DNA from: Octopus vulgaris | Taxonomy: Eukaryota | DNA: 64,000 nucleotides | Direction of reading: 5' to 3' | NCBI GenBank assembly: GCA_951406725.2 | Contig: OX597826.1 | Location: forward strand, 7,502,001-7,566,000 | Shown here: piece after piece, positions 11,629 through 59,652 of the stretch | Position numbering within the stretch: position 1 is the first letter of the stretch | Layout of the letters: every line of letters starts with the position of its first letter | Notes under the pieces: model-generated | Databases searched by the model: none | What the model saw: only the letters and a program-made list of their open reading frames with translations | What the model was told of the DNA's origin: nothing | Made by a program: the position numbers and the translations under genes

Positions 11629-12171
11629 TATTTCTTTCCTGCCCACAAGGGGCTACACACAGAGGGGACAATCAAGGACAGACAAACGGATTAAGTCGAT
11701 TATATCGACCGCAGTGCGTAACTGGTACTTATTTAATCGACCCAGAAAGAATAAAAGGCAAAAGTGACCTCGGCTGAATTTGAACACAGAGCGTAGCGGC
11801 AGACGAAATACCTATTTCTTTACTACTCACAAGGGGCTACACACAGAGAGGACAAACAAGGACAGACAAACGGATTAAGTCGATTACATCGACCCCAGTG
11901 CGTAACTGGTACTTATTTAATCGACCCCGAAAGAATAAAAGGCAAAAGTGACCTCGGCTGAATTTGAACACAGAACGTAGCGGCAGACGAAATACCTATT
12001 TCTTTATTGCCCACAAGGGGCTAAACACAGAGAGGACAAACAAGGAGAGACAAACGGATTAAGTCGATTATATCGACCCCAGTGCGTAACTGGTACTTAT
12101 TTAATCGACCCCGAAAGGATGAAAGGCAAAGTCGACCTCGGCAGAATTTGAACTCAGAGCGTAGAGGCAGA
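11629..12171 (-). repeat. Tandem array of three 184-bp units derived from Meta-domain SINE
   Basis: TATTTCTTT...CAC unit starts at 11629, 11813 and 11997. Confidence 0.92.
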
Positions 12172-15429: not shown

Positions 15430-16017
15430 AATTTCTTGTCTATTCTAGGCACAAGGACCGAAATTTTGGTTGAGGGGCCAGTCGATTAGATCAACACCAG
15501 TACACAACTGGTACTTAATTTATTGACTTCGAAAGGACGAAAGGCAAAGTCGACCTCGGCAGAATTTGAACGCAGAACTTAGGTAAATATATATTCTTTT
15601 CTGCTCTAGACACAAGGCCCAACACTTTGGAGGTGGGGACCAGTCGATTAGATTGCCCTCATTACGGAACTGGTACTTAATTTATCGACCTCGAAAGAAT
15701 GAAAGGCAAAGTCAACTTCGCCGGAATTTTAACTCAGAACGTAAAGACAGACGAAGTTTTTCATACCGCGTGCTAACGTTTCTTATTTTTTTATTGCCCA
15801 CATGGGGATAAACATAGAGGGGCAAACAAGGACAGACAGAGGGATTAAGTCGATTACGTCGACGCCAGTGTGTAACCGGTGCTTACGTTATCGACCGCGA
15901 AAGGATGAAAGACAAAGTCTATCTCGGCGAAATTTGAACTCAGAACGTAACGGCAGACGAAATACCGGTAAGCATTATCGCCTGACGTGCTAACGTTTCT
16001 GCTAGCTCGCCGCCTTA
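15430..16017 (-). mobile_element. Stack of three Meta-domain SINE copies
   Basis: Three same-strand GAAAGGATGAAAG-type cores. A TAGGTAAATATA-like spacer recurs at about 15419, 15580 and 16017. Confidence 0.8.
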
Positions 16018-16269
16018 AGTTAAACATATATTGTAATTTTACGTGTATTAGCTTAATTTCGAGTGTATGCATATCACTCTCAAGAGTTGATATTATTTTG
16101 AAATTCCTCCAGAATTAATTCTCCTTTTAATTCCCTAACCTTACGAGTAACGTCCTTCTACAAATTTTTCAAGTTGCAAGCTGTAAACTCCATCTTGCTT
16201 TCTAGCGTTTGGCTCATCGTATAGTTAATGGGACGGTGGGTTATATTGCTTTCGCATTAATGTGGGGAA

Positions 16270-16685
16270 CTATAGACTGGTTAGCACCCCCGGGCAAAAT
16301 GTTTAGCGACATTTCATCGGTCTCTACGTTCTGAGTTCAAATTCCACCGGGGTAAACTTCTGGCTAGATGAAATAAGTACCAGTTACGTACTGAGGTCGA
16401 TGTAATCGACTAACTTCCTTCCTCCAAGTCTACAGGCTTTGTTGCTATAGTAGAAAGGATATTACTTTTCGCATTTCGGCGGCGAGATGGCAAAACAATT
16501 AGCAAGCTGTGCAAAATGCTTCGGGACATTACGTTCCGAGTTCAAATTCCATCAAGGTCGACTTTGCCTTCACGTCTTTTCTGGGTCGATAAAATCAGTA
16601 TCATTTGAGCATTCGAGTGTCCTTGTAATCGACTACATCTTGCTCCTCATAACACTGGCCTTGGGTCAAAATATGAAATCGATAT
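16270..16685 (+). mobile_element. Two older Meta-domain SINE copies in tandem
   Basis: Degenerate heads (GTTAGCACCCCCGGGCAAAATG; GGCGGCGAGATGGCA) and GTTCAAATTCC B boxes. Confidence 0.7.
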
Positions 16686-17949
16686 TACCTTTTGCATTGG
16701 TCAGTTCAATTTCTAGATAAATTAATTGGTATTTCTCTTGTAATGAAGTACGCAACGGATTCGTTAAAATTAGTTTAATTCGTTTTTAAATCAGTATTGA
16801 ACTCTAGACTTTATGATAGATTTCTTGTGAGTACCAGGTGTGTGAGTGCCAGAATCACAGCAGGTAATGTTTTAGTAATTGCTCTTAAATATGGCTCGTC
16901 TTCGCAGGTGTATATTATATGACTCGGAAAATTTCGACAATAACATGCGTCATCATCGCAATAATTCTTCACTGTTTAACAGATGCGATCGTGTTTTTCT
17001 TTCTGTCATCTCTTACTTGCATTTAAATATTAATATGTAATATGAGTTCTATAGTTTCATCTCATGAATACGATATTATATAAATGGGAACCATTTTATA
17101 TTGAAAGTACTCTTTTCATTTTACAAAGACGCTATTTGGCTTCATGTTGATACTTTATCATGTTGATATTTTCTCAGAATATTCTTAATTTTTGCTGTCA
17201 TATATACTAATTTTAATTAAAATCTGGTGCTCTATTTAATCTTTAAACAAAATGTATATTCAAAGAAGACATGTTTTATTTGTTTAGGAAGTTCACAATC
17301 TATATGATCGTAAGTTGAAATATTCTACCGAAATATAAAAATACATTTTCCTTTTCCAAAATTTTAAGACGCTTAATTGTAGTTTTATCTTAGAAGCCTA
17401 GAAGAGATTTCATCTCATTTATCTCCGTTTTTTAACTTTTTTTTTCAATTAATCCATTATTCATTAAATATATTTGTAATTTCAGGAAATTATTTACGTA
17501 ATTACAGATATTCAGTCTCCCTTCATGCTATTTCCTTTAAAGATAGGTCGAGATATAAGTTTGTTGAGTTGTCTTTGTTATATGATTATACCAATACCGA
17601 ATGAAAGTAACTCCTTTAGCGACAATAATTTATACTTATTAGATGAATAAGTAAATTCGCACCTGTCACTAATGTCAGCAGATTTGTCAAAACAACTTAA
17701 TAATGAATATCATCTTTTCCGAACTTTGAACTAGATTATTGATGTAGCAGCCGTGGTTACTAAGTGTTTCTGATTAGTTATGATCCATTTTGAAAGGACT
17801 ATTGTTTGTAATTATTCACCTCATCGGAATTAGAATTTCCCCTAATTCAAACAATATACTCGCTAAGAGAGCATATCCCCAAATTTGTATACCTTTCTTT
17901 GCCAGAGCATATCTACATCGGTGTTCACATAGTCGAATTCCCCCTCTCT

Positions 17950-18870: not shown

Positions 18871-18955
18871 AACGAATACACACACACATACATATATATA
18901 TAATAAAGGAAAAATATATAGTAAATACACTAGCTAAAAACGCATACCATATATT

Positions 18956-19421
18956 TATTTCTTTATTGCCCACAGTGGAATTAAAGATAGAGGGGTCAAA
19001 CAAGGACAGACAGAGGGGATAATTAGATTACCTCCACCCCAATGCATAACTGGTACTTATTTAATCGACCCCGCAACGTTGAAAGGTAATGTCGACCTCG
19101 GCGGAATTTGAATTCACAACGTAACCGTAGACGAATTACCGTAGAGCATGTCGCCCGGCGTGCTAACGATTCTGCCAGCTCGCCGCCTTATGCGTTTAAC
19201 ATATATTAATTTCTACCCTAGGTACAAGGCCTGAAATTTTGGGGGAAGGATCCAGTCAATTTGATCGACCCCAGTACGCATCTTGTTTTTAACTTATCAA
19301 CCCCGAAATGTTGAAAGGCACAGTCGACCTCGGCAGAATTTGAACTCAGAACTTAACCGCAGACGAAATACCGCAAATCAATTTGCCCGGCGTGCTAACG
19401 ATTCTGCCAGCTCGTCGCCTT
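18956..19421 (-). mobile_element. Two stacked Meta-domain SINEs (tail A and tail B) separated and flanked by a repeated spacer
   Basis: CGTTTAACATATATT at 19193 and 19424, and a diverged CGCATACCATATATT at about 18941. Confidence 0.85.
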
Positions 19422-20014
19422 AAACGTTTAACATATATTGATTTTATGCACAAACGGACGGAAGACAGACACAAAAGTTCCCTAATTCTTTATCAGTTAT
19501 CAACCAGGTGGTATTACTCAGTTTTGCGCCCTTAATAATAAGACTGAGATGCCTCCCACGCTAGCTGTTCCTGCTAAAGTTACGGAGGATATAACGGTGA
19601 GGGCAAATAATATATGAAAAATAAGCGTTAGATATGTGGATATAGAAAAGTGAATAAATGTATTTTAAGACGATGGGTGAAAGACAAAGGTGAACTAAAT
19701 AAGAAACAAGCAGAATATAGCCTCAGGGCCAAAAGAACATCAATGGTGGGTAATGCTTAGAGGGTAATCCTAAAGGATTGGAAAAACAAAATGCAAGATA
19801 CGTACCAGTGGGACACAGAATTTTGGACCGGACAGCTACGCGCATGGCTGTAAAAAAAAGGGGGAAGAAAGAGGCTAGCTACAGATCACGTGTAAGCGGC
19901 AGGCAGAGGAGAAAGAGGATAAGAGAGAGGGACAGAGAGAAGGGGAGGGATGAAGAGCAGTAAACGGAAAAAGAAGAAAGGCTAGAAATAGAGTCGCACG
20001 GATATATTATTTTA

Positions 20015-42465: not shown

Positions 42466-44420
42466 GGTAAGCTGGCAGAAACGTTAGCACGCCGGACGAA
42501 ATGCGTAGCAGTATTAGGTCTGCCGTTGCGTTCTGAGTTCAAATTCCGCCGAGGTCGACTTTGCCTTTTATCATTTCGGGGTCGATAAATTAAGTACCAG
42601 TTACGCACTGGGGTCGATATAATATACTTAATCCGTCTGTCTGTCCTTGTTTGTCTCCTCTGTGTTTAGCCCTTTGTAGGTAGTAAAGAAATAGGTATTT
42701 CGTCTGCCGCTACGTTCTGAGTTCAAATTCTGCTGAGGTCGACTTTGCCGTTCATCCTTTCGGGCTCGATAAATTAAGTACCAGTTACGCACTGGGGTCG
42801 ATATAATCGACTTAATCCGTTTGTCTGTCCTTGTTTGTCTCCTCTGTGTTTAACCCTTTGTAGGTAGTAAAGTAATAGGTACTTCGTCTGCCGCTACGTT
42901 CTGAGTTCAAATTCTGCTGAGGTCGACTTTGCCTTTCATCCTTTCGGGCTCGATAAATTAAGTACCAGTTACGCACTGGGGTCGATATAATCGACTTAAT
43001 CCGTTTGTCTGTCCTTGTTTGTCTCCTCTGTGTTTAACCCTTTGTAGGTAGTAAAGTAATAGGTACTTCGTCTGCCGCTACGTTCTGAGTTCAAATTCTG
43101 CTGAGGTCGACTTTGCCTTTCATCCTTTCGGGATCGATAAATTAAGTACCAGTTACGCACTGGGGTCGATATAATCGACTTAATCCATTTGTCTGTCCTT
43201 GTTTGTCCTCTCTGTGTTTAGCCCCTAGTGGGTAGTAAAGAAATAGGTATTTCGTCCGTCGCTCCGTTCTGAATTCATATTCCATCGAGGTCAACTTTGC
43301 CTTGCATCCTTTCGGCTTCGATGTATTAAGTACCAGTGAAACACTGGGGTCGATGTAATCGTCTAGTCCCCTCCCAATAAACTTGAGTGCTTGTGCCTGC
43401 AGAATAAAGGATTATTACTAGTGTTGGTAAGGCGGCGAGCTGGCAGAAACTTTAGCACGCCGGGCGAAATACTTAGCGGTATTTCGTCTGCCGCTACGTT
43501 CTGAGTTCAAATTCCGCCTTGGTTGACTTCGCCTTTCATCCTTTCGGGGGGGGGGGGTCGATTAAATAAGTACCAGTTACGCACTGGGGCCGACAAACTC
43601 GACTTAATCCGTTTGTCTGTCCTTGTTTGTCCTCTCTGTGTTTAGCCCCTTGTGGGTAGTAAAGAAATAGGTATTTCACATGTCCCTATATTCTGAATTC
43701 AAATTCCATCGTGATCGAGTTTGTTTTTCATCCTTTCGGAGTCGGTAAATTAAGTACCAGCTGCGTACTGAGGTCTATTAAATCGACTGGCCCCCTCCCC
43801 AAAAATTTCGGGCCTTGTGCCTAGAGTAGAAAAGAATAGTTATTATGCTGGGCAAAATGCTTAGCGGTATTTCAGATGTCCCTATATTCTGAGTTCAAAT
43901 TCCATCGTGATCGACTTTGCCTTTCATCCTTTCGGTGTCGATAAATTAATACCAGTGAAATACTGTAGTTGATAGAACTGACTAGTCCCCTCACCCAAAA
44001 TTTCAAGCCTATTATTTTTGTAGCTAAGGCTAGTCGAAATGTTTAGCGATATTTCGACTGTCGATATGTTCTGAATTCAAATTCTGCCGTGGTCGACTTT
44101 GCTTATCATTCTTTCGGGCTTGATAAATCAAGTACCAGTTGCGTACTGGGTCGATCTAATCGACTGGCTCCCTCTCCCCCCAAAACGTCGGACCTTGTGC
44201 CGAGAGTAGGAAAGAATCGTTAGCACGCTGGTGAAAATGCTTAGCATCATTTCGTCCGACTTTACGTTCTGAGTTCAAATTCTGAGTTCAACTCAAATTT
44301 CCCTGTCATCATTTTCGAAGCAATGATATAAATTAAGTCATAACCGATGTCAATCTACTTGACTGATACTCTCACTCCGCTTAAAATTAGCCGGCCATGT
44401 GACAAAGTTTGAAACACCTA
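42466..44420 (+). repeat. Long head-to-tail array of about 10 Meta-domain SINE units, including a 184-bp periodic core
   Basis: AGGTA(T/C)TTCGTC junctions at 42693, 42877, 43061 and 43245; a second full head at 43430; increasingly diverged units to the right. Confidence 0.92.
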
Positions 44421-45075
44421 ATGTTCTTTGGTATATTTATGTTCGATGTCACTGTTCGCTCACTGTTCAAGACGTCCACGTTAGTGTTGCTCCCTATGGA
44501 AGCACCTATTATTCTTTCGTTTTGTCAGTGAAAAAATGTAAACCTGACGGAGATATAGTTGCTATTTTCAGTTGTTCGAACTGCTACGTAGAGTCTCCAT
44601 CGTTGTCTTGCTATCTTCTAATAACGTTGTTTTAGCTACTGTCGTACATGGTGGATACAGTAAGGATGATGATATCATCTTTGTTATAATATTGGTCGTA
44701 GTGATGATGATAGTGATAGTGTCATTAATGCCATTGGTGTGGGGCGATGGTATCGAAGACGTCATTGCTGCATTGATGATGGTAGCGTCGATGGCGAAAT
44801 TGAAACTGTTGTTACAGATATCTATCTCATTCATGTTGCTCTTAGTCTGGTTGAACTATTATCGTTGTTGCTTTTATTTTAGCTTCAGTCTTTGTTATAT
44901 ATGTTATTATTGCCGCTATTAATGTTGCTATTTCATTTGTTATCGTTCTAGTTGCTAATCTTAGCCTCATTTTGTTACTAGCGTTTCATGCTTTTGTTCT
45001 TTCTGTCTTCGTGATATGGAAGCTGATATTTCACTTGTTATTGCTTCTTCTGTTGCTGTTGCTGTTGTTGCTGTT

Positions 45076-45773: not shown

Positions 45774-45973
45774 TGTATTCAACTGATCCATTTGACGCTG
45801 TTGTTAATGTTGCTTGTGCTTCTATAACCGCCGTTCGATTCTCATTGTTCGATTAATCGCTTTGCTGCCATTGTTTTTACTGTTGTTGTATTTCATTGTT
45901 TATTGTTATTTGCTAGTAAATAATTGTTGCTGTTGTTGTTGTTGTGGTCGTCGTTGATATTTATGTTCGTCAT

Positions 45974-47020
45974 AAGACGGCGAGCTGGCAGAAACGTTAA
46001 AACGCCGGGCGAAATGCGTAGCCCTATTTCGTCTGACGTTACGTTCTGAGTTCAAATTTCGCCGAGGTCGACTTTGCCTTTCATCCTTCCGGGGTCGATA
46101 AATTAAGTACCAGTAACGCACTGGGCTCGATATAATCGATTTAATCCGTTGATCTGTCCTTGCTTGTCCTCTCTGTGTTTAGCCCCTTGTGGGTAGTAAA
46201 GAAATAGGTATTTCGTCTGTCTGTACGTTCTGAGTTCAAATTCAGCCGAGGTCACCTTTGCCTTTCATCCTTTCGGGGTCGATAAATTAAGTACCAGGTA
46301 CGTACTGGGGAAGATCTAATCGACTGGCCTCTCCCCCTCCCCAAATTTTGGACCTTGTGCCTAGATTAGAACAGATTCGTTAGCAGGCCGGGCAAGATGC
46401 TCAGCAGCATTTTGTCCGTCTCAACCTTCTGAGTTCAAATTCCACTGAAGTCGGTTGTGCTTTTCGTCCTTTCGTGGTCAATAAATTAAGCACCAGTTGA
46501 AAAATGGTGTCGATGTAATCGATTAGTACCCTACTTTGAAATGTTAAGCCTTGCACCTACAGTAGAAAAGAATATTTATGTTCGTCATGAGGCGGTGAGA
46601 TGGCAAGTTCATTCGCACGCCGAGGAAATCCTCGACAGCATTTCAGATTTAAAATTCCGGCTGAGGTGTGTCCCACCTTTCATCCTTACGGAGTCGATAA
46701 AATAAGATCACTTGATGGGTGTGGTTGATATAAATGACATATCCCTCTCACCCTGATATTACTGGCCCTGTGACAAAATTTGAAATCAATATTTATTTCC
46801 GTCATCAGGCAACGAACTGGCAGAATCTTTAGCACCCTTACAAAATGCTTAGCCTCATTTTGCTCCTCTCGATCTTCTGAGTTCAAATTCAGACAATGAC
46901 TAGTTTACATTTCATCGCTTCGAGGCCGATAAAATAAGTACCCGTTGAGTAGTGGGGTGGATATAATCGGCCTACTCCCCCCGCTCGAAATTACTGGTCC
47001 TGTGCCAAAATTCGAAGCCA
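45974..47020 (+). mobile_element. Ordered stack of Meta-domain SINEs delimited by four copies of a 17-bp spacer
   Basis: ATATTTATGTTCGTCAT at 45957 and 46572, with variants at 46789 and 47021. Confidence 0.9.
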
Positions 47021-47877
47021 ATGTGTATGTTTGTCACACTACCCTTCAGTCTGTTGCTATTGTCAACCACCTAGCAATTATTCCGATGCTATTGTTTATC
47101 TCCATGATGCTAATTACCTGGGCTGTTATTGCCTTTTGTCAAGCAGTTGTTTTCCTTGCTGTATTTCGAGTGTGTTGTTTATATTGTTGTTCATGTTGCA
47201 GTTGATGTAGCTACTGCTGTTATCCCTCTTACATATTTGCGTTATTATATTTTGTTGTTATTCCATTGCTGCAGGCGCAGTTGCTAATGCATTTGTCCTT
47301 GTAAATCTTTATTCTGCGACTAACACATCAATCCATCTTGTAATTGTTTCGGCGGGATCAATATGTCAAATTGCATTTGATATTATTACAGAGTGGTGTG
47401 ATGTTGTGAGTGTGTTGTAATGTGGTATATAGAATGACGGTAAGTAAGAACGAAAGAACTAGACGCAGTAGAAGTGTTGTAGATGGCCAGAAACGTAAGA
47501 AAAACAGGAAAACAGATGAGACGAAACAGCATGGTTCTTCTTCGTGTTTCCATTAAACATAGCAGTAATGGTCGCAGTGAAATCCTTGCTGTCGATGTCG
47601 TTTACTCATAGAGGAGTAGAGCTATGTTCAATGCATTTTGGCCTTGAACAAATTGTATTTACTTTATTCGGATATAAATCATGTACGATTTCCTTGATGG
47701 GTGTGTCCTTCTTTTTAAAGAGGATGAAGTATGAACCATGGATGATTAGGTTACTATATTTAGCAGTTTCATTGACTTCCTAGAAATTATTTGAAAATGT
47801 GGGAGGAAGTATTAAGAAGTGTTACCGTTTGTGATAGTAGTGGCAGACCTGTTATTTCCGATAGGTGCGTAGTAGCT

Positions 47878-56987: not shown

Positions 56988-57430
56988 TTCTTTTCTACTG
57001 TAGGCGCAAAACCTGAAATTTTAGGGGAAAATTTAATACATCAACCCCAGTGCGTCACTGGTATTTATTTGTTAAGGTGGTGAGCTGGCAGAAACGTTAG
57101 CACACCGGTCAAATGCGTAGCCGTATTTCGTCTGCCGTTACGTTCTGAGTTCAAATTCCGCCGAGGTCGACTTTGCCTTTCATCCTTTCGGGGTCGATTA
57201 AATAAGTACCAGTTACGCAATGGGGTCGATATAATCGACTTAATCCGTGTCTCTCCTTGTTTGTCCTCTCTGTGTTTAGCTCCTTGTGGGTAGTAAAGAA
57301 ATAGGTATTTATTTCATCGACCTCGAAAGGGTGAAAGGAAAAGGCGACATCGCCGGAATTTGACCTCAGAACGTAAAGACGGACGATATTCTTAGAAGTG
57401 TTTTACGCGGCATCCTAACAATTCTGTCGG
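56988..57430 (-). mobile_element. Old Meta-domain SINE interrupted by a younger copy of opposite orientation
   Basis: Host halves at 56988-57070 and 57304-57430. Confidence 0.78.
57071..57303 (+). mobile_element. Young Meta-domain SINE monomer (tail A), 11-bp TSD
   Basis: GGTATTTATTT at 57060-57070 and 57304-57314. Confidence 0.9.
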
Positions 57431-59160: not shown

Positions 59161-59565
59161 AAGGCAATTAGCCGGCAGAAACGTTAGCACACCGGGCGAA
59201 ATGCTCAGCGGTATTTCATCTGCCGTTACGTTCTGAGTTCAAATTCCGCCGACGTCGGCATTGCCTTTCATCCTTTCGGGGTCGATTAAATAAGTACCAA
59301 TTGCACACTGGGGTCAATATAATCGACTTAATCCGTTTGTCTGTCCTTGTTTGTCCCCATCTCTGTTTAGCCCCTTGTGGGTAGTAAAGAAATAGGTATT
59401 TCGTCTGTCTTTACCTTCTGAGTTCAAATTCCGCCGAGGTCGACTTTACCTTTCATCCTGTCGGGGTCGATAAACTAAGTACCAATTGCGTACTGGGGTC
59501 GATCTAATCGATCGCCCCACCACTCCACTCCACAAAAATTTCGGGCCTTGTTCCTTGAGTAGAAA
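59161..59565 (+). mobile_element. Dimeric Meta-domain SINE (tail A unit plus headless tail B unit), 17-bp TSD
   Basis: AGATTTATTTTAATTTT at 59144-59160 and 59566-59582 encloses both units. Confidence 0.9.
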
Positions 59566-59652
59566 AGATTTATTTTAATTTTTATACCTTTCATTTACAT
59601 CTGCTCATTAATTTTTCGCTCACTTTACCTAGGGCAACAACAATTACTGCAA

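Follow-up and report, generated by a model that had tools for sequence, protein, structure and literature searches.

Same-strand SINE stacks in the Octopus vulgaris genome and the probable reuse of one target site

Within a 64,000-nucleotide stretch of the Octopus vulgaris genome (GCA_951406725.2, contig OX597826.1, positions 7,502,001 to 7,566,000; hereafter the window), four copies of one 17-base sequence alternate with SINEs that all lie on the same strand. Such an arrangement raises the question of how it was built, and in particular whether it grew at one end, with each new SINE entering ahead of the last, and what would bring the new copy to that place.

Anatomy of the locus and its SINE family

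Consensus sequences for the SINEs were built from 1.26 Mb not chosen for SINE content, made up of 100 pieces of 10 kb taken at fixed positions, 20 more from the flanks of the window, and the window itself; this unselected sample was later enlarged to 1.46 Mb, with 605 SINE units. Four subfamilies have head and core in common and differ in their tails, and their median divergences are 0.198 for T1 (n=58), 0.173 for Tb (n=42), 0.112 for T2 (n=36) and 0.061 for T3 (n=113), T1 and Tb being inseparable outside CpG sites (both 0.171). The consensuses are 216–233 bases long and have the properties of a tRNA-derived SINE: they are short, non-coding, dispersed and flanked by target-site duplications (TSDs), and A- and B-boxes can be read by eye in the consensus head. 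ARAGORN and Rfam reported no tRNA, and Rfam otherwise nothing relevant. The preliminary description had called these Meta-domain SINEs. Judged from sequence, there is no support for placing them among the MetaSINEs, in which a 66-bp Meta domain directly follows the head: one motif taken from the available part of the published BivaMeta-SINE1 alignment (PMC4824008) gave 0 matches in the window with as many as 3 mismatches allowed, a narrow test that used one bivalve motif rather than a Meta consensus. For the CORE domain of the octopus OR1/OR2-type CORE-SINEs, only a 12-base resemblance to the accessible BivaCORE-SINE2 sequence can be made out by eye; a separate motif comparison is circular, the motif having been fitted to the present SINE.

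The locus comprises the following features, all on the forward strand:

45957..45973 (+): TSD1, target-site copy 1, with the original genomic upstream context kept
45975..46207 (+): A1, a full-length T3 SINE of the youngest subfamily (16/233 differences), its tail running without spacer into A2 at consensus position 49
46207..46377 (+): A2, the body of a T2 SINE from consensus position 49 onward (16/168 differences), its tail running without spacer into A3 at position 16
46373..46574 (+): A3, an old body from position 16 onward, its tail T2-like; the nearest subfamily is the intermediate Tb (44/201 differences)
46572..46588 (+): TSD2, target-site copy 2, identical to copy 1
46590..46790 (+): B, a full-length T1 SINE from which 16 internal bases are deleted (47/198 differences)
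46789..46805 (+): TSD3, target-site copy 3 (15/17)
46807..47022 (+): C, a full-length T1 SINE (47/215 differences)
47021..47037 (+): TSD4, target-site copy 4 (13/17), beyond which lies unique flank

The four 17-mers at 45957, 46572, 46789 and 47021 were reproduced with the matches first given for them (identical, identical, 15/17 and 13/17), and the first three were indeed seen each to adjoin a same-strand SINE head. SINE tails precede copies 2–4, and the tail adjoining TSD2 belongs to A3. Exact matches to the 17-mer in the 2.8-Gb genome number only four, two at the locus and two elsewhere without SINE context; since these extra matches stand apart from any SINE, the 17-mer is locus-specific and not a piece of the SINE consensus, the possibility that the preliminary description had set against its own reading. 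The sole part common to SINE tail ends and target sites generally is ATATT, the first 5–6 bases of the 17-mer. The four 17-mers are real and locus-specific, and they behave as one repeatedly duplicated target site. Copies 1 and 2 are separated from copy 3 by 2 mismatches and from copy 4 by 4, distances that fit the insertion order C, B, A3, in which only the last place of A3 is forced and the order of B and C is ambiguous.

Divergence from the best of the four subfamily consensuses is 0.069 for A1, 0.095 for A2, 0.219 for A3, 0.237 for B and 0.219 for C, so that decay is about equal in A3, B and C, the three insertions bounded by TSDs. Two junction types are present, type I being tail-TSD-head and type II the direct, spacer-less fusion of a tail with another copy at its position 16 or 49, and the type II joins fall at short matches between tail and head. 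The earlier picture was one of three SINEs with decay rising rightward; a steep age gradient exists, but it sits within the first unit (A1–A3), where it is mostly a type II product, and the bodies number five, with A3, B and C level. No sign of a function of the locus was seen.

Contigs from other genomes cover 46496–47600 (organism C) and 46482–47600 (organism B). These contigs take in the A3 tail, TSD2 and the SINEs B and C, and those parts therefore predate the splits from organisms B and C. A second sample of organism A spans 46325–46650 with one difference. No empty or shorter allele was seen in the contigs of 7 runs, which break at repeats; the comparison excludes the repeat at 45917–45961 and the short contigs at the A2/A3 joint (organisms B and D, with fewer than 31 bases on one side).

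Several other compounds lie in the window. A larger one at 42470–44450 (+) contains four T3 units joined at position 49 with a 184-base period, a spacer-and-head junction near 43410–43430 and several older bodies, and a degenerate look-alike of the 17-mer stands at 44433 (3 mismatches). A second TSD stack with three site copies is found at 18940–19440 (−), in which the upstream T2 copy (0.12) has decayed less than the T3-tailed copy downstream of it (0.16), the latter unusually old for its kind. At 15430–16040 (−) a T3+T2 compound is followed by a common TSD and then by a T2 copy 5'-truncated to begin at position 66, a headless stack member, and at 16274–16690 (+) an old pair, T2-like and T1, is accompanied by three TSD copies that have decayed. 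The sites at 11629–12171 (−) and 59161–59570 (+) contain T3 arrays and a T3+T2 compound, joined at head position 49, the commonest junction genome-wide. A T3 copy at 57076–57400 is inserted antisense into the core of another SINE, where there is a short match to its tail, and this antisense core site is used again in loci L081, L149 and others.

Stacks across the genome and their direction of growth

Genome-wide searches for tail-spacer-head patterns gave 144, 53 and 311 exact matches, all of them lower bounds, and the reversed-pattern controls gave 0. Pooled counts exclude one array (L043) and ten overlapping or duplicate loci (L002, L003, L044, L188, L189, L194, L224, L226, L248 and L274). 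In the unselected sample, 13 of 182 heads had a same-strand tail 5–26 bases upstream, and opposite-strand heads at this spacing numbered 0; the rate of tails at 5–26 bases was 3.25 per 1000 vs 0.12–0.16 at 269–1060 bases, a difference of ~20-fold. The larger sample (1.46 Mb) contained 15 stacked heads out of 207, and away from the window the count was 7/147. Stacks are common genome-wide and involve ~5–7% of heads.

Spacer lengths peak at 13–18 bases, like the TSDs of solo copies. The expectation that the spacer repeats the 5' flank of the upstream copy held at 54 of 139 junctions against a null of 1.5%, and the spacer matches the 3' flank at 67/139; it did not hold throughout, for 47/139 had no match among the spacer and the two flanks. 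TSDs around single elements, detected by another score, were found in 42/98, 31/78 and 38/103. At 3/139 junctions the TSD surrounds the whole dimer and the inner spacer is foreign. Loci L030, L035, L039 and L052 have this look, with a flanking TSD around both copies, and candidate origins for such dimers are read-through copying and recombination. Two further stacks (L230 and L231; G000:C5, ~84.042–84.044 Mb) are found 1.2 kb from each other; their strands are opposite and their spacers similar, and they are possibly an inverted duplication.

Type II junctions, spacer-less and internal to a head, number 71 among the 605 units, and their upstream unit belongs to the same or a younger subfamily with the sole exception of one Tb-into-T1 case. 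A T2 body that follows T3 has the same age as a single T2 copy (0.097 vs 0.095), and the heads (positions 1–48) at T3-into-T2 joins diverge by 0.069 vs 0.123 in single T2. A T2-aged body under a T3-aged head indicates that T3 likely entered later and overwrote the head; insertion of T3+T2 as a ready-made dimer was rejected on the same body ages. In L207, L208, L210 and others, a T3 tail is followed by head bases 49 to ~64 and then by a full new head, and the repeated bases are a visible TSD, which speaks for insertion rather than recombination at position 49.

Direction of growth was assessed from the order of subfamilies and from the site copies themselves. With symmetric genome-wide patterns, T2 lies upstream of T1 in 33 cases vs 3 in the opposite order; one of these three is a T3 variant, and T3 invasion of T2 heads hides some cases of this kind. 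Where junctions were chosen by the T1 tail alone (n=28), the owner of the downstream tail was T1 in 18, Tb in 1, T2 in 0, T3 in 0 and unassigned in 9, and among 29 junctions chosen by the T2 tail a T1 owner followed in 6. Raw counts for the other pair were 15 with T3 upstream of T2 and 43 with T2 upstream of T3; by our own reading of 30 downstream T3 copies, ~6 are true T3 ends and ~24 are T3 heads on older bodies, and once the latter are set aside T3 and T2 have no clear polarity. In same-subfamily pairs (n=66) the less decayed body was upstream in 35 and downstream in 25. The odd TSD copy in 44 triplets was copy 1, 2 or 3 at 39, 37 and 55 sites, respectively (one-sided p 0.024), with flat counts of 15/14/17 in the 16 young-upstream triplets, and a comparison of distances (14 vs 10) was not significant. 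The 15 unselected stacks are too few to settle the order. A 5' bias is shown genome-wide for one subfamily pair, T2 over T1. Growth at one end, which the preliminary description had claimed as a rule, is upheld for this pair but not for T3 and T2, and at the locus the order is partly readable.

Target-site reuse and its rivals

The stack is best explained, and in our assessment was probably built, by separate insertions that reused one target site and likely fell mostly on its upstream copy. The target preference was read from 48 non-T3 insertions that have a verified TSD and no neighbour upstream: a T-rich stretch comes first, then Y at −4 (44/48) and then AAT-AT(T), and the TSD length beyond AAT is mostly 13–16. 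The T1, Tb and T2 tails end in AAT, and this ending would provide a short match for priming. Scored with the 48-site matrix, the contexts created by the tails rank low among natural target sites, at or below the 6th percentile for T1 and at or below the 2nd for Tb and T2. A new tail joins at offset 0 to the start of the old TSD in 42/68 junctions, with spacers of 11–22 nt.

These features suggest that the partner LINE enzyme would nick at the T-rich-Y-AATAT(T) motif, that the SINE tail with its AAT end would prime at the nick, and that a second cut would follow ~16–19 bases further on. After insertion the preferred left context would stay with the upstream TSD copy, and the downstream copy would have the purine-rich SINE tail in its place. 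Because the left context would be lost at the downstream copy, growth would be biased to the 5' end without any part being played by a promoter, and the next insertion would land ahead of the old head and duplicate the same bases again. The anatomy points to a second route as well, by which T2 and T3 copies would have entered the first head later, at positions 16 and 49, and this entry would account for the steep age gradient of the first unit.

A model of the motif only predicts 0.5–2.7% reuse, the range depending on the decay correction assumed, and observed reuse was 7.2% (CI 4.1–11.7) overall and 4.8% (CI 1.9–9.6) away from the window. The excess could reflect hot chromatin, an underfitted matrix, a head match of one to a few bases, or guidance by the head. 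The upstream TSD has exactly the length of the spacer in 35/60 vs 18% expected from independent second cuts, and to yield this exact 5' boundary the model of site reuse must add a sequence-fixed second cut, here an assumption. The identity of TSD1 and TSD2 also counts against site reuse, given that A3 is 22% decayed.

Both the excess, ~2- to 10-fold above the motif-only estimate, and the exact boundary would be accommodated if the next copy were guided by the old head, whether by Pol III factors bound there (tethering of the Ty3 or TRE5 kind) or by short homology between the head and the new cDNA end at the second-strand step; that heads attract insertions is also suggested by the 71 head-internal junctions. 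We consider guidance of this sort unlikely. The 3' junction tracks the old cut site over 11–22-base spacers and keeps no fixed distance from the head or from the Pol III start, and private changes of the old head (positions 1–30) recur in upstream copies at 5/177 vs 15/225 in distant neighbours. Of 21 5'-truncated TSD-bearing copies, 3 also carry a stacked copy upstream, and in the unselected sample 2/8 truncated vs 2/36 full-length TSD-verified copies are stacked, the order being ambiguous in both sets, so that these counts do not decide on a dependence on an intact promoter. Longer copying of the old head by the upstream copy was rejected as well: an excess over shuffled pairs was gone when distant neighbours served as the comparison and near-duplicates and CpG sites were taken out. 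The preliminary description had the SINE targeting its own start site; targeting of the Pol III start as the cause of the stack is not supported, since the tail joins the old first-cut site and sequence preference predicts the direction. The wider claim, that the old head draws and positions the next copy before itself and that tens of thousands of stacks thereby record SINE waves from one end, is one to which we give a low probability.

Local duplication, by unequal exchange between TSDs or SINE copies, is a very improbable builder of the stack, even though it is the route proposed for SINE arrays in the accessible text of PMC11481361, same-subfamily pairs dominate and real cases exist in octopus: 6/65 of these pairs are near-duplicates by a second test, and array L043 (G000:C2:189949794-189952838, with L044) has 11 T2 copies, with identical 17-base spacers unlike the TSD that flanks the array. 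B and C, of the same subfamily and age, could likewise stem from an early duplication after insertion, but they differ by 0.35 and have 7/47 private changes in common. Moreover, A1, A2, A3 and B/C fall in different tail subfamilies, and of 72 same-subfamily neighbour pairs only 2 look duplicated and 70 do not. Duplication of A versus B appears largely refuted on these sequence comparisons. Neighbouring copies are mostly independent insertions, which agrees with the earlier claim that sequential insertion re-duplicated one target site. A copy of A2-A3-B from a donor elsewhere was also rejected, the best other match having 79% identity among the 40 of 8577 candidates that were scored. One might finally suppose that both TSD copies are hit equally and that downstream insertions replace the old element through homology, so that only upstream ones survive as stacks. 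Overwriting of homologous sequence that lies upstream does occur, as the T3-aged heads on T2-aged bodies attest, but chimeras of an old head and a young tail are rare (1/60 T2, 0/91 T3), a count to be read with the proviso that complete replacement would leave no such trace; we regard this replacement as very improbable.

Comparison with known systems

Younger Alus reportedly reuse the cut site of older Alus, as attributed to El-Sawy and Deininger in 2005, and tandem Alus with a common TSD, an Alu target-site triplication, are said to have been described by Lee et al. in 2015. Alu also often inserts into the A-tail at the 3' end. The octopus SINEs, unlike Alu, are without an A-tail, and the missing A-tail may be a reason for the strong 5' bias here.

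The preliminary description knew of no account of a SINE targeting its own start site, but consecutive insertion and the Ty3 analogy both appear in Weber 2006 (PMC1687206), the accessible text of which reads two different retroposons in tandem, with three copies of one TSD, as consecutive insertions and raises the Ty3/TFIIIB-TFIIIC idea as one possibility. That target-site triplication concerns a few mammalian cases made by L1 machinery, with no polarity count in the accessible text, whereas the octopus stack has four TSD copies, with stacks at ~5–7% of heads and a measured 5' bias. According to the portion available of McGurk and Barbash 2018 (PMC5932611), a target motif together with a TSD almost guarantees dimers. 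Their double insertion is alike in having the TSD in head-to-tail junctions and dimers that may expand into arrays, as L043 has here; it differs in concerning Drosophila LINEs and DNA transposons, and in that portion of the paper the word SINE is absent and the direction of growth untreated. In crocodilians, tandem SINEU-3 copies sandwich a TSD and are attributed to sequential insertion in the accessible text of Kojima 2015 (PMC4494074), but the SINEU-3/Tx1-Mar target is a fixed site in Mariner, whereas the octopus TSD is locus-specific around a short motif. Both octopus anatomies have counterparts in a mollusc, the blood clam, where the available text of PMC11481361 gives arrays of the form TSD-(SINE-TSD)n and of the form TSD-(SINE)n-TSD with head-truncated inner units; the clam units resemble one another closely and unequal exchange is put forward for them, whereas in octopus most neighbours are independent and belong to different subfamilies. 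In mammals SINE multimers are frequent, according to the parts available of PMC8466645 and PMC10702118.

A literature search, with subscription papers mostly outside its reach, found no polarised SINE stacks in octopus. Ty3 and TRE5-A insert near the Pol III start, and CRISPR arrays grow at one end. The octopus stack is like the former in that insertion takes place near a Pol III start, and unlike them in having no fixed distance from it and only same-strand copies at the stack spacing. Unlike a CRISPR array, the stack has no dedicated machinery or function that we could see, its repeat is the target, and the insert is always the same element; the likeness is one of geometry only.

Stacks nevertheless offer a natural test of how a retrotransposon chooses its cut, for nothing but the outer flank sets the two TSD copies apart, and the counts favour the left one. 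From stacks the order of SINE subfamilies can also be read without a clock, and stacks seed tandem arrays such as L043. Should the reuse beyond the prediction of the motif model come from the head itself, this would amount to a self-guiding step of which the literature searched held no example. A CRISPR-like or promoter-guided system is likely not what the locus represents; in its working it resembles, and it belongs to, double insertion and target-site reuse, of which it is a rather clean example.
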